Shown piece after piece: positions 4,051 through 17,083 of a DNA stretch of 64,000 bases (the stretch's first letter is position 1; every line of letters starts with the position of its first letter). Source of the stretch: Escherichia phage ECBP1; the sequence record NC_018854.1. One strand, given 5' to 3'. The notes beneath the pieces were generated by a model, which was given only the letters and a program-made list of their open reading frames with translations, made no database searches and was not told the origin of the DNA. Both the position numbers and the translations under genes were made by a program.

Positions 4051-5103
4051 ATGGCAAGCATTGACTCCTTGACTGTATGTAATTCACGTCAAGCTCGTAA
4101 CTTTATTATTCGTGCCCTGAAAGCAGGTAACGTACCATTCCTGACTTCATCACCTGGCATGGGTAAATCTGCAATCATTCGTTCTATTGCAGAAGAATTT
4201 GGTATGAAGTTGATAGATCATCGTCTGTCTACTTCTGCCCCAGAAGATCTTTCTGGTCTACCATTCCGTAATGGTGACCGTGCAGAGTTTATTCCATTCG
4301 CTGATTTATTCCCTATTGAAGGGGATGAAGTACCAGAAGGTTATAATGGCTGGCTCCTGTTCCTTGATGAGTTCAACTCAGCTAAGAAAGAAGTAGTAGC
4401 TGCTGCATACAAACTAATTCTCGACCGTATGACTGGTCAGAAAAAACTTCATCCTAATGTGATGATTGTCTGTGCTGGTAACAAAGCTACTGACCGTGCC
4501 ATTGTTAATCCTCTGGGTACTGCAATGCAGTCTCGTGTGGTTCACTTTGAAATGGAACTTAACTTCGACATCTTTGTTGAAGATGTAATGATTCCTCAAC
4601 AATGGGATGAACGTCTGGTTGCATTTCTACATGCTAACCCAGGTTATCTGCATGACTTCGACCCAGCCCATAAGAACAAAACATTCTGTTGCCCTCGTAC
4701 TTGGGACTTTGTTAACAAAGACCTTAAGAATCAGCCGGAAGGTGCTCTTCCTGATGAAGATTCTATCTACTATGCAGGTCACGTTACTGCTGGTAAGGCT
4801 ACAGAATTTGTTCAGTTTACCCAGGTATATAATCGTATGATTACGATTGAGAAGGTAGTCAAAGACCCTATGGGTTGTGCACTACCAGAAGATAACAACC
4901 TGTGTTGGGCTACCGTTAACCATCTAGCTAACAAAACTACTGAAGAGAACTTCGCTGATGTTCTTCAGTACATCGAACGCTTTAAAACGTTCACCCATAA
5001 GATTCTGTACTTCCGTACAGTAGGCAGAACATTACCAGAACTTCAGGCTACTCCTGAATGGCGTAAGGCTGCTGCTAATATCTCTCGTTACATTCACGGA
5101 TAA
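4051..5103 (+). CDS. AAA+ ATPase, MoxR-like
   Basis: Walker A SSPGMGKS, Walker B LFLDEFN; 350 aa; immediately followed by vWA partner. Confidence 0.8.
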   Translation: MASIDSLTVCNSRQARNFIIRALKAGNVPFLTSSPGMGKSAIIRSIAEEFGMKLIDHRLSTSAPEDLSGLPFRNGDRAEFIPFADLFPIEGDEVPEGYNGWLLFLDEFNSAKKEVVAAAYKLILDRMTGQKKLHPNVMIVCAGNKATDRAIVNPLGTAMQSRVVHFEMELNFDIFVEDVMIPQQWDERLVAFLHANPGYLHDFDPAHKNKTFCCPRTWDFVNKDLKNQPEGALPDEDSIYYAGHVTAGKATEFVQFTQVYNRMITIEKVVKDPMGCALPEDNNLCWATVNHLANKTTEENFADVLQYIERFKTFTHKILYFRTVGRTLPELQATPEWRKAAANISRYIHG

Positions 5104-5107
5104 AACA

Positions 5108-6283
5108 ATGAACCAATTTCCTCAGCACACACTTAGTGATGAACAACTCATGCGCGAATATGACCGTATTCAGGCGCAGGCGTTTCTCGGACGCAGTGCT
5201 GCCTTCTTTGGTTCATTACTATGTAGTCTTAAATTCTCATGGAAACGTGAGGATTGTCCCACTGCATGTACTGATGGGATAGAACTCCATTTCAACCCAG
5301 ACTTCTTTATCTGGATGTGTCCAGATGCAAGGGAAACAGTATTAATGCATGAACTATGGCATGTGGCATATCTACATGACATCCGTCGTGGAAGCCGTGA
5401 CCCGGAAGTCTGGAACCAGGCATGTGACCACTTCATTAACCTTCAGTTAGAGGAGGATGGTTACAAGTTCACTGGTATTAATGAAGGCATTTGCAAAGAC
5501 CCTCAATATAAAGGATGGGTCGAAGAAGACATCTACGATGACCTGATGAAGAACCCTCAGAAAAGGCAGAAGCCGTCAGGGGGTGCTGGAGCAGGTCTTG
5601 CTGGCGACATGAAATCCCCCACTTCGGGACAGTCCCAGGGTGCTGTCGTCAACAACGTAGTACGTGCAATGCAGAGCCAGAAGATGGCTGGTGGAACAAT
5701 GCCCGGTAAGGGTGCTGGTCGTATGGAAGAGGTTATTACCCAATTCCTTAAACCAGTGGTTCCATGGCAAGAAGTACTCATGAACTTCTTTACCGACATT
5801 GATGACACTCACTATACGTGGGCCAGACCTAACCGTCGTTACACTGACATTTATCTACCTTCCCTGGAAGATGATGAAGGACGTCTACGACACCTAGCCT
5901 ACTTTGAGGATGTATCTGGTTCTATTAGTAGTGCTGACTCTCTGCGTTTTAACTCAGAGGTTGCCTACGTTAAGAGTCAATTCAATCCTAAGAAGATGAC
6001 CCTAATCACCTTCGACGATGTTATCCAGGAAGAAATAGACATCACTGAAGAAGATACTTTCGAAGAGATTAAGATTACTGGACGTGGTGGTACAAACCTG
6101 GAACCAGTACGCGAATGGATTATTAAGAATAAGCCAACCGCTGCAATCATATTCTCTGATATGTATGTTCGTCCAATGGAAGAATTGCCATTTGATATTC
6201 CTATCATCTGGTGTGTTCTGAATAATCCTAATGCTACCGTACCTTTTGGGGAGGTAGTTCATATCCCTAAAGGAATGAAATAA
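5108..6283 (+). CDS. vWA-domain protein with N-terminal HExxH putative metallopeptidase-like domain (MoxR partner)
   Basis: 'MHELWHVAYLHD' HExxH motif; Gly-rich linker; C-terminal vWA-like region; canonical pairing with upstream MoxR ATPase. Confidence 0.7.
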   Translation: MNQFPQHTLSDEQLMREYDRIQAQAFLGRSAAFFGSLLCSLKFSWKREDCPTACTDGIELHFNPDFFIWMCPDARETVLMHELWHVAYLHDIRRGSRDPEVWNQACDHFINLQLEEDGYKFTGINEGICKDPQYKGWVEEDIYDDLMKNPQKRQKPSGGAGAGLAGDMKSPTSGQSQGAVVNNVVRAMQSQKMAGGTMPGKGAGRMEEVITQFLKPVVPWQEVLMNFFTDIDDTHYTWARPNRRYTDIYLPSLEDDEGRLRHLAYFEDVSGSISSADSLRFNSEVAYVKSQFNPKKMTLITFDDVIQEEIDITEEDTFEEIKITGRGGTNLEPVREWIIKNKPTAAIIFSDMYVRPMEELPFDIPIIWCVLNNPNATVPFGEVVHIPKGMK

Positions 6284-6789
6284 TGGTTGTTAATGGTAAT
6301 TCTCTATATCGTTCATCTCAGTTGCTGGATGTCCCAGACCGTAAGATATCCGAGCATGGTGTAAGCTATGGATTAGGTGAAGCTGGTTATGATATTCGTA
6401 TCAAACAGGATATTACCTTCTATCGCTTATTTGGGTTGATTCCAATGGTGAAAGTCGTTGATGGAGGTCAAGTATCACGCCATCTAGGTAAGTTCGCGTT
6501 GGCATCTGCAATTGAGAAGTTCAACATGTCCCCATCCTGTGTAGCTATCGTTCACGATAAGTCTACATGGGCAAGACGTGCATTATCTGTGTTCAATACC
6601 GTAATAGAACCAGGATGGAAAGGGTATTTGACTCTTGAACTGGTCTATCATGGTCGTAAGAAACTACATATCCCGGCTGGTGCTGGGATAGCTCAAGTAT
6701 TATTTCATCTGGTTCAGGAACCTGCTAATTACAATGGCAAGTATATGAACCAGGAAAACAAACCAGTGGCTGCTAGACCTTCAAAATAA
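6283..6789 (+). CDS. dCTP deaminase / dUTPase-family enzyme
   Basis: 'GLGEAGYDIRI' and 'IEPGWKGYLTLELVYHG' match dCD/dUTPase signature motifs. Confidence 0.6.
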   Translation: MVVNGNSLYRSSQLLDVPDRKISEHGVSYGLGEAGYDIRIKQDITFYRLFGLIPMVKVVDGGQVSRHLGKFALASAIEKFNMSPSCVAIVHDKSTWARRALSVFNTVIEPGWKGYLTLELVYHGRKKLHIPAGAGIAQVLFHLVQEPANYNGKYMNQENKPVAARPSK

Positions 6790-6819
6790 AAGGCTATCCG
6801 GCTTAATCAAGGAAACAAC

Positions 6820-7029
6820 ATGTCAGTATTTCAAGTAACTCATGCAACCTCAAATCTACGTTTAACCATTAATGCTGCAAATGTAGTTGCAGTGGAACAG
6901 ATTCCACTGTCTGATTGTGCACGTATTACGCTTGTAAATGAAGGTACTTTGGATACCAAAGAAAGCTATCGTTCAGTACGCAATTACCTGAAAAAAGCTC
7001 TTGCTCCTGCAAGCAAAGACGCTGAGTAA
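6820..7029 (+). CDS. hypothetical protein
   Basis: 69-aa ORF followed by weak stem-loop. Confidence 0.4.
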   Translation: MSVFQVTHATSNLRLTINAANVVAVEQIPLSDCARITLVNEGTLDTKESYRSVRNYLKKALAPASKDAE

Positions 7030-7102
7030 GTAGCTGCCTAAATAGCCCAGCATAGTTGGGCTATTTGAGAAGAAACTAACTCAACCTCACATAGGAACCA
7101 TC

Positions 7103-7345
7103 ATGGAATCTTTAGCAGCAATCCTTGTTTTCTTATTCATATTAGCTGTATACCTTATCCCTACTATCATTGCTTTTGCACGAGGCCATGCCTCTAAGTG
7201 GGGTATTGGTGTACTCAATATCGTATTAGGCTGGTCATTAGTATTCTGGGTAGTAGCACTGATTTGGGCACTGTCTAATAAAGGTCAGAATCAAGTTACA
7301 AACGTAACTGTTGTTCAAACCAATAGTGGCAGTAAAACAGAGTAA
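7103..7345 (+). CDS. small inner-membrane protein, Imm-like (superinfection-immunity family candidate)
   Basis: Two TM segments; 'YLIPTIIAFARGH...GWSLVFWVVALIWAL' resembles superinfection immunity protein family. Confidence 0.45.
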   Translation: MESLAAILVFLFILAVYLIPTIIAFARGHASKWGIGVLNIVLGWSLVFWVVALIWALSNKGQNQVTNVTVVQTNSGSKTE

Positions 7346-7419
7346 CTAACCTAAGCATCATTGCATAGTGGTGCTTGTGGAAGTTACTTCCAGCTCATTG
7401 CTTATCCATCTCCTAACCC

Positions 7420-7450
7420 AAGCCCACCTAACCCGTGGGCTTTTTTATTT
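7420..7450 (+). terminator. intrinsic terminator
   Basis: AAGCCCAC-ctaaccc-GTGGGCTT followed by TTTTTATTT. Confidence 0.7.
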
Positions 7451-7462
7451 ACAGGTACTCTT

Positions 7463-7849
7463 ATGTCAAGCAGACAAAATGGTAAGTCTATCCTGCAAGG
7501 ACTGGACTTAAGTAAGCTGGAACAAACTGCAATGCTTACTTTAGGTAAAACCATACATGACCAAGTGGAAATGGATGGGATTAGTTCTGATGTCTATGCA
7601 AAAATGCAGGCTCTTATTCAGAAAGGATGGCCCAGCAGAGTATTTAATATACCTACATACATTCCCCCAGAACCCCATCTGAAATCTAAGGTAGACCGAA
7701 TCATAGATAAGTTCTGGCTTAACCCATGTGGAGATGACATGCATCTTTACCTGGCTCAAATACAAAAGAATCCTCGTACTAAGGATGTGTTTAAAAGTAA
7801 GAGCACTACCCATCACTACCCATGGTATAGAAGGGGTAGTAAATACTAA
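7463..7849 (+). CDS. hypothetical protein
   Basis: Internal ATG chosen because track start 7361 precedes the terminator; 128 aa. Confidence 0.45.
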   Translation: MSSRQNGKSILQGLDLSKLEQTAMLTLGKTIHDQVEMDGISSDVYAKMQALIQKGWPSRVFNIPTYIPPEPHLKSKVDRIIDKFWLNPCGDDMHLYLAQIQKNPRTKDVFKSKSTTHHYPWYRRGSKY

Positions 7850-8292
7850 TGCGTATCCCATTCCTAAGAAAAAGGGAACGAAATCCTGTTCTTTATAATA
7901 AAGGCATAGAGGATGAGTATGAACTCAACCGTAAAGCTCGTTCCTACACAACAAAACTATTCATGGGGACTAACAACCCTGATAGATTATTGGACTTTGT
8001 TTTTGAACAAGTCTTTATCATATACAGCTTAGCTATGTCTGCTGGTTCACGAGAAGTAAGTGATAAGGCAAGACATGCTCTCTGTATGCTCCGTAAAGAG
8101 TATGAAGCCCTCATGTATGAAGACTTGTACTCCTTTAAAGAAGAAACCGCTGTAGCATGTTCTGTGGCTCTTACTGAAGGTGTAGCAGTATTACAAGAAC
8201 TACCCCGTAGTGAGTTTAAGCTGGTATACGTTCAGGTTAAGAGAATCACAGAGACAAGAAGTGGTATCACTAACTATCTAAGGTCATTCTAA
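7849..8292 (+). CDS. hypothetical protein
   Basis: 147-aa ORF with overlapping start/stop junctions. Confidence 0.45.
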   Translation: MRIPFLRKRERNPVLYNKGIEDEYELNRKARSYTTKLFMGTNNPDRLLDFVFEQVFIIYSLAMSAGSREVSDKARHALCMLRKEYEALMYEDLYSFKEETAVACSVALTEGVAVLQELPRSEFKLVYVQVKRITETRSGITNYLRSF

Positions 8293-9236
8293 TGATTAAG
8301 GCATCAGTAATTGCAGATTCCGTTCATCCAGAAACAGGAACCCGTATCACAACCTTTGAATTGGTTTATCCCCGATTCATTCACAGTGAGTTTATGACTC
8401 ACCGTGTATTCAACCGCAATGCTTCAAGTAGCCGTGCTATTCCTACCTCTAAGTTAATCGAACAGGTTCGCAATGAACCAGTGATGCCAAGTCACTGGGG
8501 CAAGAACCAGAAAGGTATGCAAGCAGATGGAGAACTCACTCCTATGGAGATTGAGGATGCTAAGTTTATCTGGGATAACGCTGCATCTGCTGCTGCTGTG
8601 TATGCTGAACAGCTACGCCGTGGGCAAGTACATAAACAGATTGTTAACCGTATTCTGGAACCCTTCACACATATCCGTGTAGTGGTAACCTCAACTAGCT
8701 GGGCTAATTTCTATGGACTGCGTGACCACAAAGATGCACAACCGGAGATTCGTGAACTGGCTCAAGCAATGCGTAAGGCACATGAAGAAAGCACACCAAG
8801 AGCATTACCGTATGGGCAATGGCATTTGCCATATATTGCTCATATTGACCGTGTTGGGGCTTACAATTTCTGCAAACGTAATCGAATTACACGCGATGAA
8901 CCAAGTGATGCAGAAGTGCATGGACTACTTCTCAAGGTAAGTGCTGCACGCTGTGCTCGTGCTTCCTATAACAACTTTGAGGGACGTCCCTCTACTATCG
9001 AAGAAGATCTTGGCTTATTCGCTAAGTTAGTGGAAAACCAACCTATTCATGCTTCACCAACGGAACATCAAGCTACGCCTATGAACCTTGGTGAGAAGTA
9101 TGTGAATAACATGAACCCAGTTACCTGGGAACAAGGTGTTACATCCATGGATAAAGAAGGGAATCTGTACTCAGGTAACCTGCTCCACTTTATCCAATTC
9201 CGTAAATTAATTCCTGGTGAGACTATTACTGAATGA
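8292..9236 (+). CDS. thyX: flavin-dependent thymidylate synthase ThyX
   Basis: ThyX signature 'RHRVFNRNASSSRAIP' (RHRxxxxxxxSxR) and overall length 314 aa. Confidence 0.85.
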   Translation: MIKASVIADSVHPETGTRITTFELVYPRFIHSEFMTHRVFNRNASSSRAIPTSKLIEQVRNEPVMPSHWGKNQKGMQADGELTPMEIEDAKFIWDNAASAAAVYAEQLRRGQVHKQIVNRILEPFTHIRVVVTSTSWANFYGLRDHKDAQPEIRELAQAMRKAHEESTPRALPYGQWHLPYIAHIDRVGAYNFCKRNRITRDEPSDAEVHGLLLKVSAARCARASYNNFEGRPSTIEEDLGLFAKLVENQPIHASPTEHQATPMNLGEKYVNNMNPVTWEQGVTSMDKEGNLYSGNLLHFIQFRKLIPGETITE

Positions 9237-9472
9237 AAAAACTAGCTCTATACGCAATGCTAATTAGTACCCTACTAACACTGACCTACGCATACAAAGT
9301 TGCCTTTGTCGTAGAAACAGATATGCAGTTCATTCGAGCTAGTATTCTGTTCTTTGTAAGCGAGATTGGTTTATGGTGTGTTTACTACTTTGCTCGTGAC
9401 TACGAAGCAATTCGTGAGCAAGAAGAAGTGAAAAAACAAATGATACGATTTGTAGAACAAAATCGTAAGTAA
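9233..9472 (+). CDS. hypothetical membrane protein
   Basis: Two hydrophobic segments (LALYAMLISTLLTL, ILFFVSEIGLWCVYYF). Confidence 0.45.
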   Translation: MKKLALYAMLISTLLTLTYAYKVAFVVETDMQFIRASILFFVSEIGLWCVYYFARDYEAIREQEEVKKQMIRFVEQNRK

Positions 9473-9477
9473 ACCTA

Positions 9478-9504
9478 AGACCTCCTCCGGGAGGTCTTTT
9501 TTTG
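9478..9504 (+). terminator. intrinsic terminator
   Basis: AGACCTCC-tccg-GGAGGTCT followed by TTTTTTT. Confidence 0.75.
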
Positions 9505-9532
9505 GTTTCAATTAACTCTTTCAGGAGGGCAT

Positions 9533-9745
9533 ATGCCTGCTAAATACCGTATCAAAGACACACCCGTAATGTGTGAGGGTGAGAAGGGCGACATTGTATA
9601 TGCCTGTATCCAGGATGATTTCAATGCTGCTCAGATGCTAACCCAAATGACAAATACACTGCATGTGTCAGTAACACTGGACCCTACCGGTGACTATCCA
9701 TGCTTCCCTATTCCTGCCCATAACCTGGAGCAAATCCATGATTAA
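9533..9745 (+). CDS. hypothetical protein
   Basis: 70-aa ORF with GGAGG-like RBS upstream. Confidence 0.4.
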   Translation: MPAKYRIKDTPVMCEGEKGDIVYACIQDDFNAAQMLTQMTNTLHVSVTLDPTGDYPCFPIPAHNLEQIHD

Positions 9746-10064
9746 CCCTGAAGTAATTCATAGTAAAACCGGTAAGGCTGTCCCACTCAGTGAGATTGCA
9801 GTAACTGGTGATATTGCTGCTTGTCCAGCTAACATTGCCTCTCTATGCATATGCATCGCTGCACTAGCAGAGGAACGTAAGTTATGGCTGGAACCAAGCA
9901 AGGAAATGATTCAGGCTGGTTTAGCTGAAGTACAAAACACGTTAGATAACTGGGAAGAGAACGGCCCACTACCATATGGAACGGTCAACGATATAACAGA
10001 TGACATGGCATCAGATATGGCTGTGTTTGTATTACAAGCAATGGCAGGTAAACGCAATGGCTAA
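9738..10064 (+). CDS. hypothetical protein
   Basis: ATG at 9738 overlapping upstream stop (ATGATTAA); about 108 aa. Confidence 0.4.
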   Translation: MINPEVIHSKTGKAVPLSEIAVTGDIAACPANIASLCICIAALAEERKLWLEPSKEMIQAGLAEVQNTLDNWEENGPLPYGTVNDITDDMASDMAVFVLQAMAGKRNG

Positions 10065-10248
10065 TGTAAATATCGCCTCAGAGAAAACGTATAGCATTCA
10101 GATTAATGGTTTAACCGAGTATCAGGTCTTATTCCTAATGAATGCTTTTCAAAATAGTCCTGTAGGTCACCATCCTAATGATGAACCACGGGAAGAAGCT
10201 GAACTTCGTAAAGCTATTTTTGATAAGTGTAAACAAGTTCTAATGTAA
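10057..10248 (+). CDS. hypothetical protein
   Basis: ATG at 10057 overlapping upstream stop; 63 aa. Confidence 0.35.
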   Translation: MANVNIASEKTYSIQINGLTEYQVLFLMNAFQNSPVGHHPNDEPREEAELRKAIFDKCKQVLM

Positions 10249-10275
10249 GCAACATTTAATCTGGAGAGTAAATAA

Positions 10276-12843
10276 ATGTTAGTTGCAGATACCAACGAAA
10301 TAGCTACCTCAGCGACACTGGGTGGCAAAGAAACAATTGCCTTTGGCATCTCAGATGACTCGGCATTCTTCCATGTATTAAGTACTTCCCTGTATAACAA
10401 TCCTACTCTGGCAGTAGTTCGTGAGACTATATGTAACAGCTGGGATGCTCATATTGAGGCAGGTAAAACTGATACCCCTATTCGTATCACCATTGATACA
10501 GACAACTTTATTACCTTCCGTGATTACGGTAGTGGTATTCCAGATGAACTCATTGGTTCCATTTATGGTGTCTATGGTGCATCTACTAAGAAAGCCAACA
10601 TTAGTGTTACTGGTGGCTTTGGTCTGGGATGTAAATCTCCATTCGCTTATACAGATAGCTTCCAGGTTACTTCATGGAACCAAGGAAAGATGTCTGTATA
10701 TAACGTAGCTAAGGCTGCGATTGAGAATGATGGTAAGCCGGGTATTGTCCCTATTGTTACCAATATACCTACTGAGGAATCCGGTCTGGAAGTTAAATTC
10801 CAGTTAGGCAAACATGATTTAAATACCTTTATTCATTACATCAAGTCAATCGTATTTAACGGTGAGATTAAAGCTGAGCTTAGTATCCCTAAACTCGTTA
10901 AAACAGAAGAAGGTAATAGTATTCAACAAGGTGACTACACTTTACTGAATACGCTGGGCATGTCATTTGAACCTGGTTCATATGATATGTCTGATAGATG
11001 GTATCAGGGCTATATGGGTAGCAGTAACATATACGTTCGCTACGGTAATGTAATGTACCCAATTGTATCCAGCCCAGCTAGTGAAGAAGCTGTAGGTCTT
11101 ATCCTCAACTTCATGAATATTATTGGTGCTGGCAATTTAGTAGTTCAGGCTGCACCAGACACCTTAGCTATTGCTCCTAGTCGAGAAACACTGTCTAACC
11201 AGAAGTTAACCGACGATGGTATTACTACTCTATGCGTAGATTTAGTAGACCGTATGGAGAAAGAGATTAAGGCTAAGATTCCTGAAGCCATTAAGCAGGT
11301 TGAAGAATATGCCTCTAAATCCTCTACTCGCTTTTGGGAATATCCATCTTTCTTGGGTGCTGTTACAGATAGAACTGTTCAACGCTATATGTCTTCTAGT
11401 TTATGGACTAAACAACGTAAGCATCACATAAAGCACTGGCGTAACTTATCCAATAAGGCGTTATTAGCTCGTCCTGAATATGCAGGTCTTAAGAAGCTGT
11501 ATGGTAAGGCTATGCATGCTCTTAAGGATACTCGTGAGGAAAGTACATACTCCCCATTCTCAGAATTAGTATATCGCCATCTGCATTTACCTCGGCTTGC
11601 TGCTTTAAAAACCTCTGGTATTAAGTGGTCTGGTTACATAATGAATCAAGGCAACCGTGTTGACTTGGTAAAAGGTAAACTTACTGACTACTTTAGGATA
11701 TACAATAACTCTCACCAAAGTATTGGCATATTTACTACCAAGAACGTTGTAGTTACCCGACGTTTATCTGACTGTGCAGACTCTTTCTCATACTTCCCTG
11801 AATACAATCGAGGTGACCTGGAGCGTACAGCTTTTGTTCATGTCGTTGGTCCTAAGAAAGGTGCAGCAGAGGAAGCTGTAGCTAAGTTCACTGCTATGGG
11901 TTATCGGGTGATTGACCTTACTCAATATAATGAGTGGGACAAACCAACTAACTTCCGCAGGGAACAAGCTAAGATAGCTGCTGAGAAACGAGCCAAGACA
12001 ATAGCTGCCAATAAAACCAAAGCAGGTGGTAAAACCAATGCTCTGATTTCATTGAATGCAGTTCTTGGTGCTACCCAGGTACGTAATAAAAATGGGGATT
12101 GGGAACCCAGGCCGTATATTCAGAAAGAATTTGCTGACCCAAGTCGTCATGAGAAATATGGTTTCGTTGAGATAGAACAGCCTAAGTACTACGTACTAGC
12201 CAATCAGGTTGGTTCTGGTAGTCCTGTAACTGCTCGAATTGGAACCATGTGGAAATGGTATGAGTTGCCTGATGAGATGAAAGCAGAGACTGTTGTCTGT
12301 CGTAATCAAATCGAAGCTAACAAGGCCAAACGACGAGGTGCTATCCACATTGATGATGTTCGCTTTAGTGAATTGATGTCTGTTATTACCAGCAAAGGCT
12401 TCAAGAAATATGTTACTGAACATCGCATCGGTATTCTTGAATACGTAGGACTGGATGACAGGGAATACTGGGAAATTCTAGACATACTGGGTCTAACCTT
12501 CAAACCCTTACAGAATCTGATTTTCAAACCAGAGTATGAATGGGCATATGACTTTTTACGAAATCGACCACACGACAACAAAGAAAAACTTGTTGAAATG
12601 GGTTGTATTAAGTCAGTTGATGACTTAGAGCCATATGTAAAACTGGTTAATCCCCGTAACCATAAGTACTTTAAAGTACTTAATGATTACAAAGAATTAT
12701 TCAGTTATAGCTGGAATAAAAATGACATCCTACAGACGCTGGACTTAGGTAGTTTGGTCAAACACCTTAAGAAGAATCCAGAGGATATTCCTGGGTTTAA
12801 GTCCCTCTACCGTAATCGTCTAAATAAACTGAAAGGTAACTAA
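10276..12843 (+). CDS. rIIA: rIIA-like protein with N-terminal GHKL (histidine kinase/HSP90-type) ATPase fold
   Basis: GHKL boxes: 'ETICNSWDAH' (N box), 'RDYGSGIP' (G1), 'GGFGLG' (G2); 855 aa; followed by rIIB-sized partner as in T4/N4. Confidence 0.65.
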   Translation: MLVADTNEIATSATLGGKETIAFGISDDSAFFHVLSTSLYNNPTLAVVRETICNSWDAHIEAGKTDTPIRITIDTDNFITFRDYGSGIPDELIGSIYGVYGASTKKANISVTGGFGLGCKSPFAYTDSFQVTSWNQGKMSVYNVAKAAIENDGKPGIVPIVTNIPTEESGLEVKFQLGKHDLNTFIHYIKSIVFNGEIKAELSIPKLVKTEEGNSIQQGDYTLLNTLGMSFEPGSYDMSDRWYQGYMGSSNIYVRYGNVMYPIVSSPASEEAVGLILNFMNIIGAGNLVVQAAPDTLAIAPSRETLSNQKLTDDGITTLCVDLVDRMEKEIKAKIPEAIKQVEEYASKSSTRFWEYPSFLGAVTDRTVQRYMSSSLWTKQRKHHIKHWRNLSNKALLARPEYAGLKKLYGKAMHALKDTREESTYSPFSELVYRHLHLPRLAALKTSGIKWSGYIMNQGNRVDLVKGKLTDYFRIYNNSHQSIGIFTTKNVVVTRRLSDCADSFSYFPEYNRGDLERTAFVHVVGPKKGAAEEAVAKFTAMGYRVIDLTQYNEWDKPTNFRREQAKIAAEKRAKTIAANKTKAGGKTNALISLNAVLGATQVRNKNGDWEPRPYIQKEFADPSRHEKYGFVEIEQPKYYVLANQVGSGSPVTARIGTMWKWYELPDEMKAETVVCRNQIEANKAKRRGAIHIDDVRFSELMSVITSKGFKKYVTEHRIGILEYVGLDDREYWEILDILGLTFKPLQNLIFKPEYEWAYDFLRNRPHDNKEKLVEMGCIKSVDDLEPYVKLVNPRNHKYFKVLNDYKELFSYSWNKNDILQTLDLGSLVKHLKKNPEDIPGFKSLYRNRLNKLKGN

Positions 12844-12847
12844 TCTG

Positions 12848-14896
12848 ATGAAAATCGAACTGATTTCTATCATCGCACTGGCAGTTGACAGTCGTAACCT
12901 TACATTGTGGAAGCCCGATGGCTCCACGATTGTATATCCTCAGAGCGACCCACGGGTTGCTCGCATTGTATCTGAAGCTCAAACTAAAGGTCTGGGAACT
13001 ACCAAAGACCAAATAGAAGTAAACATCGCACCAGAAGTAAACCTGCGTACTGAATATCTGGAAGCAGAGAAGAACACTAACGGATTCGTCCGTTTCTTCA
13101 AGGTAGCTAAAGCTAAACTCAAAGAGTTCTTTCAGGATGGTACAGGTGTTCCACCTGACCGTATTATTTCTGATATTAAGCTGGGTAATCCTACTAAGAC
13201 ACTGGTGTCTAAAGCTATGGATACCTTTCTGGCTGTACAGGCCAATGAACCAGAAGTAACTGTAACAGATGGTTGTTATGACAAACGTGACAATCTGATG
13301 TGGGTTACTGGCTGGGACAAAGACCATAACCATCCTGCACTGGTTCGTTTTATTAACGACGTAATGGGTTGTGGGTATGAATATACTAACACCATGCTCA
13401 AACAGGAATGGCCTGTTGCAGTTCGTGCAGTATCTGATGATGAAATGGGTGAGTTTGCTAAACAAGCCGAACACATCAAAGGGGTTCATGTTGTATTCAC
13501 CAGTCGTAAACATACCCCACCACCTTACATTGAAGTAACTAAAGTTACGAACCAGGATAAGCTGGCTGCTGCCTCGGAGAAACTAGCTGCATTGGGTGCT
13601 ATTAGTACTGATGACGCTAACTTCCACACCGATGTGAAGGAAGATGAAGTGGTTGTTGCTGTTACCAACAATGGGGTTATCCCCGGAGTTGAGAACCTGC
13701 AACGTCACTTACGTCAGTCTGCCAAGCTGAAAGACTACAAGGGCTTTACTAAGTTCCTTGAACGTCTGGCTCCGGTTATTAAAGACCGTCTGCACTCAGT
13801 AGAAGACCTGATGAAGTTCATGGAAACTGCTGAACTGCCTATTGCCGATGATGGTTCAATCCTGTTCCTCAAACGCCTTAAGTCTAGTGGTATAGAAAAC
13901 GGTAAACGTGTATTCGTTGACTGTCACTCGGGTAACATTCGTCAATGGGTAGGCTGTAAAGTGCAGGTACGCGAAGACCTGGTAGACCCTGACCGTCGTC
14001 AGGATTGCTCTAACGGTCTGCACGTAGCATCCATGAGCTATCTACGTGGCTTCGGTGGTAATGTGACCATCCTTGGTAAAGTAGCACCGGAAGATGTATT
14101 TGCTGTTCCTCAGTACAGCACCAATAAAATGCGTGTATCTGCATATCATATTATTGCTGAACTACCGGAAGAGGAACGTAATAATGTTAATAATGGTATC
14201 TACCTGTCTAAGACAGAAGTAGGTAAGAAATTGCTTAATGATGCCATCGTTGGGAACCATAGCTCACCTACCACACTTATTATGGTTGGGGGTCATTATG
14301 GTACTAACCTCAAATACACTAATCTCACATCTGGTTCTGTAGAACAATTCCGTACAGTTGCTAGCAAAGAAGCACTGAACATGGAAGAGTCACTGAATGA
14401 AGCTGTAGCTGCTGAACCAGTGAAGGCTACTGACCTTAAACCTGTTATTAAGAAGGCTCCTACTGTGAAAGAACAAATCCAGGAACTGGTCAAAGAGTTC
14501 CTTACTGCAACAACCCCAGAAGATAAGTTAGCTGCTGCTGACCTTCTGGTAGAACTGCGTGGTAAAGCTCGTAAGCCTTGGGCTGCATTCGATGTGGGTA
14601 ATGATGTAGTAGCTAAGATTGCTGATGTACGTGCTACCTATACAGCTAAGCCTATTGGTAAACCTAAAGCTGTTAAGCAGGATAAGACAGTTAAACCTAC
14701 TAAATCTAAGCCTGCTATTAATAGTACTAATGCCAACATCATCAGAGGTTATCTAGCAGATAGTGGTATGTCTGATTATCAGAAAGCCCACTCCATTCAT
14801 GACCTGAAACGTGCAGCTAAGAAGTCTTATGCTGCTATGGGTCTTACTGAAGAAGAGTGCAAAGCCATTGATAAGCTGAAGCACCACCTTAAGTAA
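12848..14896 (+). CDS. rIIB: rIIB-like protein (by position and size; weak sequence support)
   Basis: 682-aa ORF immediately downstream of rIIA-like gene; Lys-rich C-terminus. Confidence 0.4.
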   Translation: MKIELISIIALAVDSRNLTLWKPDGSTIVYPQSDPRVARIVSEAQTKGLGTTKDQIEVNIAPEVNLRTEYLEAEKNTNGFVRFFKVAKAKLKEFFQDGTGVPPDRIISDIKLGNPTKTLVSKAMDTFLAVQANEPEVTVTDGCYDKRDNLMWVTGWDKDHNHPALVRFINDVMGCGYEYTNTMLKQEWPVAVRAVSDDEMGEFAKQAEHIKGVHVVFTSRKHTPPPYIEVTKVTNQDKLAAASEKLAALGAISTDDANFHTDVKEDEVVVAVTNNGVIPGVENLQRHLRQSAKLKDYKGFTKFLERLAPVIKDRLHSVEDLMKFMETAELPIADDGSILFLKRLKSSGIENGKRVFVDCHSGNIRQWVGCKVQVREDLVDPDRRQDCSNGLHVASMSYLRGFGGNVTILGKVAPEDVFAVPQYSTNKMRVSAYHIIAELPEEERNNVNNGIYLSKTEVGKKLLNDAIVGNHSSPTTLIMVGGHYGTNLKYTNLTSGSVEQFRTVASKEALNMEESLNEAVAAEPVKATDLKPVIKKAPTVKEQIQELVKEFLTATTPEDKLAAADLLVELRGKARKPWAAFDVGNDVVAKIADVRATYTAKPIGKPKAVKQDKTVKPTKSKPAINSTNANIIRGYLADSGMSDYQKAHSIHDLKRAAKKSYAAMGLTEEECKAIDKLKHHLK

Positions 14897-14958
14897 TAGC
14901 CTGTTCAAATAGCCTCACTTATAATAAAGTGAGGCTATCTTTGAAGAGGAAATAAGCT

Positions 14959-15354
14959 ATGTCTAAAGTATTCAGAAGTAATCGCAAAGCAACTGATGAA
15001 GACATCATTCGTATGAATGCTGTTGGTCTGTCCCTCGCAACTATCGCTAAGACGTTGGGGGTTCACCCAACCACAGTCACTTTGCGATTGCGTTCTCTAA
15101 ACATTGAACCAGCCGACACACGTCGGACGTTCATGGAAAACGTATTACGACCTTTACCAACCCATGTGGCTGATTGGCTGTCAGAACAAGTTGGTCCTGC
15201 TTATGAGATTCGCTCATATGTAAGAGACTTGATTCTGGAGGCATATAATAATCGCCACCTTAACCAAGAGAGTGAGCATGACAAGTTCATCCGTTTGTAC
15301 GCTGGCAAATACGGAAGCCTGGTTCCGGAAAGCAGTAGCAAATCCAACAAGTAA
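14959..15354 (+). CDS. helix-turn-helix DNA-binding protein
   Basis: 'IIRMNAVGLSLATIAKTLGVHPTTV' is a typical HTH. Confidence 0.5.
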   Translation: MSKVFRSNRKATDEDIIRMNAVGLSLATIAKTLGVHPTTVTLRLRSLNIEPADTRRTFMENVLRPLPTHVADWLSEQVGPAYEIRSYVRDLILEAYNNRHLNQESEHDKFIRLYAGKYGSLVPESSSKSNK

Positions 15355-15739
15355 GAATATTAGTACCCAGATTGGTTGTCATCTGGAAGAAGTATGTGAA
15401 ATGTTAGATGAGTTGACCCCATCCTGTGAGGATAGTATGCAAGTATTAGCCGATGCACAGGCTGCTTTGAGTAAATTATCTCTGCTGATGAAAACAAATC
15501 ACATGGCTATTTTCCCAGCGAATAGCAATCGCTTAGCTTTGCTGGATTCACTGGCAGACCAGATTGTTACAGCAACTGGAGTCGGTACTTTTCTTGGGAT
15601 GAATGTCCCTGGAGCATTGGCTGAAGTCAATCGCTCAAACTATTCTAAGTTTGAAGATGGAGAACCTGTCTTCAATGGGAACATGAAAGTTATGAAAGGG
15701 AAAGACTACACTCCCCCGGATTTAACCCCTTACATCTAA
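15278..15739 (+). CDS. MazG-like nucleotide pyrophosphohydrolase (start uncertain)
   Basis: 'HLEEVCEMLDEL' EExxE-type metal motif; C-terminal 'NRSNYSKF...KGKDYTPPDL'; frame overlaps upstream gene by about 77 nt. Confidence 0.4.
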   Translation: MTSSSVCTLANTEAWFRKAVANPTSKNISTQIGCHLEEVCEMLDELTPSCEDSMQVLADAQAALSKLSLLMKTNHMAIFPANSNRLALLDSLADQIVTATGVGTFLGMNVPGALAEVNRSNYSKFEDGEPVFNGNMKVMKGKDYTPPDLTPYI

Positions 15740-15759
15740 CCCTCTACGGAGGGTTTTTT
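15740..15759 (+). terminator. intrinsic terminator
   Basis: CCCTC-tacg-GAGGG followed by TTTTTT. Confidence 0.7.
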
Positions 15760-15772
15760 ACTGGAGATTTTA

Positions 15773-17083
15773 ATGTTTTCCAAACCTACCAAAGCCCCAC
15801 TGAACAAGGGGCAAGAAGCGGTTGCGAAGGAGTTCTTCGACTTCCTGCTCGACCCTAATGCTACCGAATTCAATATTAGTGGCCCAGGGGGAACTGGCAA
15901 GACATTCCTGATGTCGCACCTCATTGATGACACTATGCCTGCATATATGGAAACTTGCTCCCTTATGGGAACCAAGCCCCTATATAACGAAGTTGTTATG
16001 ACTGCGACCACGAACAAGGCTGCTGAAGTTCTGGCTCAAGCTACTGGGCGTCCAACATCTACCTATCATTCCTTCCAGGGATTGATTGTTAAGAATGACT
16101 TTAAGACTGGTGAGGCTAATGTCGTACCGTCCAAATCATTCAATATTAAGAAGAACAAAATCATCTTCGTAGACGAAGCATCCATGATTGACCGTCAGTT
16201 ACTTAAGTATGCTCGTGAAGGTACTCACCAGTGCAAACTGGTATTTGTAGGCGATGCTTCTCAGCTTCTGCCTGTTAAAGAGAATAAGTCTCCAGTGTAT
16301 GCAGGTAATATCCCAACACACTATCTGACTGAACAGATGCGTACCGATGCACCGGAACTTAAAGCATTGCACCAGCAATTGCGTGATACGGTAGAAGGTA
16401 AGACAGGCTTCCTGCCTATTAAATGTATTCCAGGCATCATTGATTGGGTACAGGGGGAAGAGATGGAGAAACTGGTTCTCAGTCACTTCACTCAACCTAC
16501 TAATAGCCGTATTGTTGCTTACACAAATGACCAGGTTATTAATTACAATAACTACATTCGTGAAGCTAATGGCTACGTGGGTGAGTACTCCATTGGTGAA
16601 CAGCTAGTCTCTAACTCTGCTATTCGCTTAGGTGTGGATAATCGTCTGTCTATCGAGCAAGACGTAAAACTCATTGACCAGGATAGCAGTACTCGCATGA
16701 TTCCAGTTACAGATGACCTGGAACTGGAAGTTCGTGATAGTACTCTGGACCTTGGTTATGGTGGTATTGTAAGTGAAGTCCCAGTACCTACCGACCCAGA
16801 ATACTTCAACCGTTTGGTTAAGTGGCTAGGTAAAGAGAAGAACTGGGAACCCTACTTCCGTCTTAAAGAAACCATTCCAGACCTACGTGCTACTCATGCA
16901 TGTACTGTCCATAAATCACAAGGCTCTACTTACGACACAATCTTCATTGATGCAGATGACCTCTCAAGCTGTCGCCAACCTGATATGGTTGCCCGTCTGC
17001 TTTACGTCGCTGTGTCTCGTGCCCGTAAGCGAGTAGTGTTTTATGGCAATCTTGCCAGTAAGTATGGTGGTCTAACTTTCTAA
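15773..17083 (+). CDS. SF1 DNA helicase, Dda/RecD-like
   Basis: Walker A 'GPGGTGKT', Walker B 'IIFVDEASMID', C-terminal 'VHKSQGSTYD' RecD/Dda motif. Confidence 0.8.
   Translation: MFSKPTKAPLNKGQEAVAKEFFDFLLDPNATEFNISGPGGTGKTFLMSHLIDDTMPAYMETCSLMGTKPLYNEVVMTATTNKAAEVLAQATGRPTSTYHSFQGLIVKNDFKTGEANVVPSKSFNIKKNKIIFVDEASMIDRQLLKYAREGTHQCKLVFVGDASQLLPVKENKSPVYAGNIPTHYLTEQMRTDAPELKALHQQLRDTVEGKTGFLPIKCIPGIIDWVQGEEMEKLVLSHFTQPTNSRIVAYTNDQVINYNNYIREANGYVGEYSIGEQLVSNSAIRLGVDNRLSIEQDVKLIDQDSSTRMIPVTDDLELEVRDSTLDLGYGGIVSEVPVPTDPEYFNRLVKWLGKEKNWEPYFRLKETIPDLRATHACTVHKSQGSTYDTIFIDADDLSSCRQPDMVARLLYVAVSRARKRVVFYGNLASKYGGLTF

Follow-up and report, generated by a model that had tools for sequence, protein, structure and literature searches.

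Dispersed candidate enzymes of thymidylate supply in the N4-like coliphage ECBP1: a dCTP deaminase, a phage-type ThyX and a MazG-like protein encoded across a gene overlap

In the established pathway of thymidylate supply, deoxycytidine triphosphate (dCTP) is converted by way of deoxyuridine triphosphate (dUTP), deoxyuridine monophosphate (dUMP) and thymidine monophosphate (dTMP) to thymidine triphosphate (dTTP). The dCTPase-dUTPase gp56 of T4 and MazZ of the 2-aminoadenine phages are all-alpha nucleoside triphosphate (NTP) pyrophosphohydrolases that give a deoxynucleoside monophosphate (dNMP) to a nucleotide-converting enzyme. Here we describe three candidate enzymes of deoxynucleotide metabolism, a dCTP deaminase, a thymidylate synthase of the ThyX type and a MazG-like pyrophosphohydrolase, encoded between positions 6283 and 15739 of a 64,000-nucleotide (nt) stretch of Escherichia phage ECBP1 (NC_018854.1), hereafter the window. 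A close counterpart is found in phage N4 (Enquatrovirus N4, EF056009), which has the same order of rIIB, gp35, gp36 and helicase genes and the same 77-nt overlap of gp35 and gp36. The N4 gp36 protein, of 150 amino acids (aa), is 65% identical to the MazG-like protein over the full length, and the differences from N4 amount to sequence divergence and to the Shine-Dalgarno only, which reads AAGGAA in N4 and AAGAGAG in ECBP1. N4-like genome papers routinely mention these genes (e.g. PMC6027278), and GenBank already lists them, under these names and in this order, for Gamaleyavirus and N4; the finding of the three enzymes is correct and ordinary. The literature searched contained no biochemical characterisation of N4 gp26, gp30 or gp36 and no study combining ThyX, N4-like phages and dCTP deaminase, and the CRISPRi-ART paper contained no N4 data.

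We consider it probable that the three dispersed, family-conserved enzymes push deoxypyrimidine supply from C to T, and that the MazG-like enzyme is translated from the ATG at 15278, within an extension of the gp35-like gene. In this scheme the gp26-like enzyme, whose family and catalytic residues are seen in the sequence, would deaminate dCTP to dUTP; dUTP would be cleaved to dUMP and pyrophosphate (PPi) by host Dut, by a second activity of the deaminase or by the gp36-like enzyme; the gp30-like ThyX would methylate dUMP to dTMP with methylene-tetrahydrofolate, flavin adenine dinucleotide (FAD) and the reduced nicotinamide cofactor NADPH; and host kinases would carry dTMP on to dTTP. The MazG-like enzyme is itself predicted to be a metal-dependent hydrolase converting (d)NTP to (d)NMP and PPi. 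A G+C content of ~43% in the window, against ~51% in E. coli, fits a need for more dTTP, and all three enzyme genes recur in distant Schitoviridae subfamilies (e.g. ZC03, C121 and RHph_Y38). An earlier note on this DNA had placed the four genes concerned at the positions listed below, with either 15272 or 15278 as the first base of the MazG-like gene, and these positions are accurate; the three enzyme identities that it proposed are borne out by profile searches (DCD/PHROG 1663, Thy1/PHROG 85 and PHROG 671), and the helix-turn-helix (HTH) neighbour with its 77-nt overlap in another frame is likewise as described there.

6283-6789, + strand: dCTP deaminase, N4 gp26-like, 168 aa
8292-9236, + strand: ThyX, N4 gp30-like, 314 aa
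14959-15354, + strand: small HTH protein, N4 gp35-like, 131 aa
15266-15276, + strand: Shine-Dalgarno-like purine-rich stretch AAGAGAGTGAG, ahead of ATG 15278
15278-15354, + strand: 77-nt overlap coding in two frames, for the gp35-like tail (frame 0) and the MazG-like N-terminus (frame +1)
15278-15739, + strand: MazG-like all-alpha NTP pyrophosphohydrolase, N4 gp36-like, 153 aa (155 aa from GTG 15272)

The dCTP deaminase and a phage-type ThyX

The deaminase matches Pfam DCD (PF22769) with an E-value of 3.8e-16 and 60 bits, above the 27-bit gathering cutoff, and PHROG 1663 'dCTP deaminase' at 1.3e-57; its ATG shares 1 base with the stop codon of the upstream gene at 5108-6283. Matches in the PDB include 4DHK (3e-11), 3KM3, the bifunctional 4XJC and 2QLP, and E. 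coli 1XS1. The phage residues Ser94, Arg98 and Glu119 align with Ser111, Arg115 and Glu138 of E. coli Dcd, the established deamination residues, and they are invariant in E. coli and 6 phage homologues, in a set that covers four further subfamilies or genera of the Schitoviridae as well as the jumbo phage Lu11. Like the phage protein, bacterial dCTP deaminases (E. coli 1XS1; Burkholderia thailandensis 4DHK) belong to the dUTPase superfamily and have the PGW motif and the catalytic Ser, Arg and Glu, but the phage protein is shorter (168 versus 191-193 aa) and lacks the two-residue His-Arg insertion of E. coli Dcd, and E. coli Asp128, of the IDPGW motif, is replaced by Glu in all phage homologues. 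An assignment of the gp26-like protein as a dCTP deaminase of the dUTPase superfamily is supported by these comparisons, with its activity predicted, and the protein represents a divergent phage branch of these enzymes.

The genes around ThyX are closely packed: the ThyX start shares 1 base with the stop of the open reading frame (ORF) that lies directly upstream, at 7849-8292 as numbered in the report's ORF list, and the ThyX 3' end overlaps the start of the next ORF (9233) by 4 nt. The protein matches Pfam Thy1 (PF02511) at 2.2e-13 with 50.8 bits, above the 24.8-bit cutoff, a match limited to profile positions 60-190 on ThyX residues 21-169, and it matches PHROG 85 at 3e-116. With an AlphaFold2 model built from 28 homologues (predicted local distance difference test, pLDDT, 87), Foldseek retrieved ~150 chains of Thermotoga maritima ThyX (TmThyX; TM0449, PDB 1O26 and others) with a probability of 1.00, E-values down to 1.8e-6 and ~158 aligned columns, and the core fold is common to both proteins. 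The equivalents of TmThyX H79, R80, N85, S88, R90, R147, N169 and R174 are invariant in the phage ThyX family, with R147 corresponding to phage R120 and R174 to phage R144, and the RHRxxSxxxxSxR motif of ThyX reads T36-H37-R38...S46-x-R48. The equivalent of H53 is H253, in a loop HASPTEH (residues 253-259) that is invariant in the family. The earlier note had made its proposal depend on conservation of the motifs: the deaminase catalytic triad and the acidic motif of the MazG-like protein are invariant, and in ThyX the expectation holds in part, with the equivalents of H53, H79, R80, S88, R90, R147 and R174 shared by the T. maritima and phage enzymes and those of R78, E86 and Y91 absent. We regard the gp30-like protein as a phage-type ThyX, an assignment supported by the modelled fold and by most key residues, with its activity predicted.

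The phage ThyX is 314 aa long versus 220 aa for TmThyX, with ~55 extra C-terminal residues. Profile-profile alignment with hhalign equates its residues 21-169 with TmThyX 63-199 (E 1.3e-6) and its residues 216-259 with TmThyX 21-59 (E 8.4e-5), and HMMER places both segments likewise. When residues 205-260 were moved in silico ahead of the core, the Pfam Thy1 match, until then confined to profile positions 60-190 with 51.0 bits, covered positions 13-190 and scored 62.9 bits, versus 47.3 bits for a control with a shuffled insert; the score for the NCBIfam equivalog TIGR02170 rose from 53.4 to 65.9 bits (control 48.2), still below its cutoff. In the phage-type ThyX the N-terminal segment, made of two helices and the HxSPxEH loop in which the His53 equivalent lies, thus appears to have been transposed to a place behind the catalytic core. 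A single-sequence Pfam scan of the C-terminal half gave no match, and the rearrangement is visible only by profile-profile alignment and the reordering experiment. This ~310-aa type is widespread, with at least 1014 phage records covering at least 80% of its length, and its carriers include PB1-like and PAK_P1-like Pseudomonas phages, rV5-like coliphages, ICP1, and Campylobacter and Caulobacter phages. The literature searched gave no account of a permuted ThyX, which is no proof that none exists.

The MazG-like protein and its start within the gp35 overlap

For the MazG-like protein the one family match is to PHROG 671 'nucleotide pyrophosphohydrolase' (8e-31); no Pfam family, MazG and DUF550 included, was matched at E<=10, and no NCBIfam family at E<=1. 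Its homologues are abundant, with 894 clusters at 90% and 2729 at 50% identity. The AlphaFold2 model (pLDDT 96) consists of five helices followed by a C-terminal extended segment, and E37, E38, E41, D90, D94, N121, S123, K124, K137 and K140 are invariant among 48 homologues of 38-65% identity. An acidic two-helix metal site, EExx[E/D] plus an ExxD-like motif, defines the all-alpha NTP pyrophosphohydrolases (PMC10014863). By their pattern, E37/E38/E41 and D90/D94 are predicted to be this two-helix acidic metal-binding site, and the invariant basic residues could bind phosphate.

The predicted helical-bundle fold is related to that of a solved member of the superfamily, the closest solved relative being PDB 3NL9 (Exiguobacterium Exig_1061). 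Both Exig_1061 and Deinococcus DR2231 share the helical-bundle fold and the acidic metal-binding cluster with the phage protein, and in all three a C-terminal motif resembling EV(x)R(x)N(x)SK precedes conserved lysines. The second acidic motif is DxxxD in the phage protein versus ExxD in DR2231, and the similarity to DR2231, confined to residues 88-150, is not significant (E 0.8 with the single sequence, >1 with the family profile; Foldseek of the model E >4, template-modelling score 0.37-0.46). Membership in the all-alpha NTP pyrophosphohydrolase superfamily (MazG / HisE / dimeric dUTPase) is supported by motif and predicted fold. The likeness to T4 gp56 and MazZ is one of working principle, and no base modification is expected here.

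The MazG-like gene is read in the +1 frame of the HTH gene and shares exactly 77 nt with it (15278-15354). All 11 Enquatrovirinae genomes compared keep ATG 15278 and have an overlap of 77 nt. The 43 residues ahead of an internal Met, encoded by the in-frame ATG at 15401, are among the best conserved of the protein (WF.KA.P.PT.KNI.TQIGCHLEEV.EM, including the EExxE motif), with 83-93% identity across genomes, and distant phage homologues, like the representatives of the 50%-identity clusters in public genomes and metagenomes, can be aligned with it from ~residue 5 on. Nucleotide diversity in the gp35-only part is 0.108/0.062/0.362 by gp35 codon position, and in the overlap it is 0.167/0.175/0.326 by MazG-like codon position (0.106/0.121/0.347 in its second half). 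Because the codon-position diversity switches frame at the overlap, the constraint there lies in the MazG-like frame; the earlier note had allowed that this frame might not be translated, and a codon-position signature of purifying selection in fact runs across the overlap. The anti-Shine-Dalgarno duplex energy is -4.2 kcal/mol for ATG 15278, -0.7 for GTG 15272 and -3.3, badly spaced, for ATG 15401, and the RNA structure at the start is nothing unusual (z -0.19). Where the earlier note had called the start uncertain, the conserved N-terminus, the conserved ATG, the frame-specific wobble and the best Shine-Dalgarno now fix the predicted start at ATG 15278, the one that gives the 77-nt overlap.

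A shorter product, of 112 aa from ATG 15401 and with no overlap, is very improbable. Such a form is what several GenBank and RefSeq records give: the gp36 homologue is annotated at 110-113 aa in many records, with 112-aa versions in Bp4, phi G17, PGN829.1, PhAPEC7, Moo19, BaqKoxi, PBM-3 and ECBP1, and the coding sequence (CDS) of the Bp4 homologue (11587-11925 of the stretch compared) begins at the internal Met. The full form, of 150-153 aa, is the one given for N4, AlfredRasser and nithesis. A protein of 112 aa would be without helix 1, most of helix 2 and the invariant EExxE motif, and it would leave unexplained the conservation upstream of 15401, the wobble in the MazG-like frame and the distant homologues that align almost from the first residue; the Shine-Dalgarno for 15401 is, moreover, the weaker and badly spaced one. 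The 112-aa annotations are, on this comparative evidence, truncated. A further record, that of Achromobacter phage Axy13, gives a 588-nt 'hypothetical protein' and a 150-nt ORF where its gp36 homologue lies (1173-1950), and a tblastn match to the MazG-like protein spans 1501-1941, which suggests a mis-called frame or a frameshift.

The HTH protein matches PHROG 6377 at 5e-74, with weak Pfam HTH_38 and HTH_23 matches. In an alignment of its homologues strong conservation stops near residue 96-100, the tail being a lineage-specific extension, and amino-acid identity is 0.62 in the tail versus 0.90 in the gp35 body; the last ~25 codons of gp35 are under relaxed constraint. Other Schitoviridae have a shorter gp35 homologue and an overlap of 56 nt (C121), of 4 nt (Ebordelon) or none (Fifi287, RHph_Y38). 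The overlap arose by 3' extension of gp35 over the older, constrained start of the MazG-like gene.

Predicted transcription units and neighbouring genes

Across the interval 6283-15739, nucleotide identity to Escherichia phages PD38 and Bp4 is 95.7%, with the same genes, and the 85 phage records that match it are nearly all N4-like coliphages of Gamaleyavirus (Schitoviridae, Enquatrovirinae). By these matches, the window belongs to an N4-like coliphage in the genus Gamaleyavirus (Schitoviridae). The Bp4 RefSeq record maps the genes of the interval to N4 gp26, gp28-gp32, gp30, gp33/gp34, gp35, gp36 and gp37, giving gp26 as dCTP deaminase, gp30 as thymidylate synthase, gp33/gp34 as rIIA/rIIB and gp37 as helicase. 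Since each gene is cross-referenced to N4 in this way, the interval is the familiar middle region, with the replication genes, known from N4-type phages. The further features of the region are as follows.

7420-7442, + strand: predicted intrinsic terminator, 8-bp stem with 5 G-C pairs and a T-run, after the dCTP deaminase/Imm gene string
9477-9498, + strand: predicted intrinsic terminator, 9-bp stem with 5 G-C pairs and TTTTT, closing the ThyX gene string
10276-12843: rIIA, a single intact ORF, 855 aa
12848-14896: rIIB
15738-15755, + strand: predicted intrinsic terminator, 7-bp stem with 4 G-C pairs and a T-run, overlapping the MazG-like stop codon and preceding the helicase gene
15773-17083: helicase gene, downstream of the MazG-like gene

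Because of the hairpins at 7420-7442, 9477-9498 and 15738-15755, the last of which matches the position of a terminator annotated in the PhAPEC7 record, the three enzymes fall into three successive predicted transcription units and would not form one operon. Moreover, ~13 genes with no tie to nucleotide metabolism, among them an Imm homologue, rIIA, rIIB and small unknowns, separate the three enzymes across 9.5 kb. The 'module' of the earlier note therefore stands as to the presence of the three enzymes and falls as to their contiguity. The MazG-like gene comes last in the rIIA-rIIB-gp35 transcription unit and is directly followed by the genes for the helicase and the DNA polymerase. A scan for sigma-70 promoters found sites to be rarer than in shuffled sequence, a scarcity that is expected because N4 middle genes are transcribed by phage RNA polymerase, and no Rfam family was found in 6000-16000.

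Phage nithesis, 91% identical, is a fully annotated relative. Its annotation contains no further nucleotide-metabolism gene, with no trimeric dUTPase, ribonucleotide reductase (RNR) or dCMP deaminase, and tblastn searches of the window gave no match to Dut or ThyA of E. coli or to Cd of T4. The rIIA gene, one 855-aa ORF in the window and also intact in nithesis, is given as three CDS in the Bp4 record (6464-9029 of the stretch compared), and the split probably reflects frameshift errors or genuine pseudogenisation in that record.

The gene at 5108-6283, upstream of the deaminase, encodes a DUF2201_N putative metallopeptidase and VWA-like protein (Pfam 1.4e-56 and 1.4e-34) and pairs with an AAA ATPase gene at 4051-5103; the label 'HNH endonuclease' on its equivalent in the nithesis and Bp4 RefSeq records looks like a misnomer. 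On the 3' side of the deaminase, a 69-aa ORF at 6820-7029 has a sub-threshold match to Pfam bpX6 (E 0.0022, 18.3 bits versus a 27-bit cutoff) that may be due to chance; bpX6 is a domain of MoxR-vWA-beta-propeller ternary systems, and the candidate ORF stands near the AAA/VWA pair. Between the deaminase and ThyX, at 7103-7345, lies a homologue of the T4 Imm-type superinfection-immunity membrane protein (Pfam Imm_superinfect 6.4e-17; PHROG 1039 5e-30). The ORF at 7361-7849, as given by the program with a TTG start at 7361, reads through the predicted terminator at 7420-7442 and has a PHROG match from residue 35 only; its true start is probably ATG 7463, as in the shorter Bp4 and nithesis annotations.

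Probable thymidylate supply, other proposed roles and significance

Several observations weigh against a joint function of the three enzymes in moving deoxypyrimidines from C to T. They are without operon co-location. The deaminase scores 75.9 bits (3e-21) with the NCBIfam equivalog TIGR02274, below its cutoff of 92.8, and ThyX scores 53.1 bits with TIGR02170, below its cutoff of 87.9. TmThyX R78, E86 and Y91 are replaced in the phage ThyX by Thr, Ala and Ala, and the order of its segments is non-canonical, with the N-terminal helices and the His loop behind the core and not before it. Finally, the MazG-like family occurs alone beside replication genes in Vibrio phage V039C, without deaminase or ThyX, and for this reason its role need not serve the thymidylate pathway. 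With these points counted, we still hold the C-to-T reading to be probable.

That the MazG-like enzyme is a dedicated dUTPase, which would make the phage route from dCTP through dUTP and dUMP to dTMP self-sufficient and keep uracil out of phage DNA, is a doubtful proposal, if one with several points in its favour. No trimeric dUTPase was found in the window or in the annotated close relative nithesis, a monofunctional deaminase would yield dUTP needing removal, and dimeric dUTPases are members of the same all-alpha NTP pyrophosphohydrolase superfamily (PMC5122711). The weak similarity of residues 88-150 to DR2231, an enzyme that is reported, in Mota et al. 2016 as cited in PMC10014863, to be exclusive for dUTP, points the same way, but it falls below significance; no substrate is known for 3NL9, the closest structure, the family is present in V039C with neither a deaminase nor ThyX to serve, and E. 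coli already has Dut. House-cleaning, the usual annotated role of the superfamily (PMC10014863), is one of several possible roles and, beside replication genes, at least as likely as a dUTPase role. We give somewhat less than an even chance to the broader alternative that the enzyme acts apart from thymidylate supply, in house-cleaning of damaged or non-canonical dNTPs or as a hydrolase of a host signalling or defence nucleotide; the place of its gene at the end of the rIIA-rIIB-gp35 unit, adjoining the helicase and DNA polymerase genes, and the lone gene near replication genes in V039C speak for it, and the co-occurrence of the enzyme with the deaminase and ThyX across Schitoviridae subfamilies speaks against it. 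It is also rather unlikely that the deaminase is bifunctional (a dCTP deaminase-dUTPase) and yields dUMP directly, with no separate dUTPase required: PDB matches include the Bacillus halodurans 4XJC and Mycobacterium tuberculosis 2QLP and 2QXX structures, and the protein is short, like bifunctional forms, but its best matches are the Burkholderia and Anaplasma dCTP deaminases and the position of E. coli D128 is Glu in all phage homologues.

A strategy of uracil-containing or otherwise modified phage DNA, with the deaminase and the pyrophosphohydrolase serving it as in the dU-DNA phages, is hardly credible. Those phages do pair a dCTP deaminase with a dTTP- or dTMP-degrading hydrolase (PMC12697855), but their deaminases belong to the zinc-dependent dCMP-deaminase family and their hydrolases to the HAM1, HD and deoxyribonucleotidase families (PMC12697855). 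We rejected this strategy on two grounds: those deaminase and hydrolase families are not present here, and a ThyX with conserved key residues would make dTMP, the very nucleotide that dU-DNA phages remove. The C-to-T reading also has a stronger version, that gp36-type proteins are the missing dUTPase, completing a three-enzyme route from dCTP to dTMP that needs neither Dut nor ThyA of the host, and that ThyX represents a widespread but structurally undescribed phage class with its FAD/folate-binding N-terminal helices and His loop behind the core; that both parts hold together seems to us unlikely.

The direct impact of these findings is small, since the genes are standard, already-annotated members of the N4 family. 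What the analysis adds is a firm predicted start codon, the origin of the overlap and an apparently transposed N-terminal segment of ThyX. For annotation, the gp36 homologue would be corrected to 150-154 aa with a 77-nt gp35 overlap, the 112-aa entries being without the EExxE metal-binding motif, and the locus is a clean example of an overlap that formed when an upstream gene was extended at its 3' end into a start region that is older and under constraint. The MazG-like protein represents a large phage family of NTP pyrophosphohydrolases (~2700 clusters at 50% identity) whose substrate is accessible to biochemical testing, and the rearranged phage-type ThyX may be of interest because ThyX is an antibacterial drug target.

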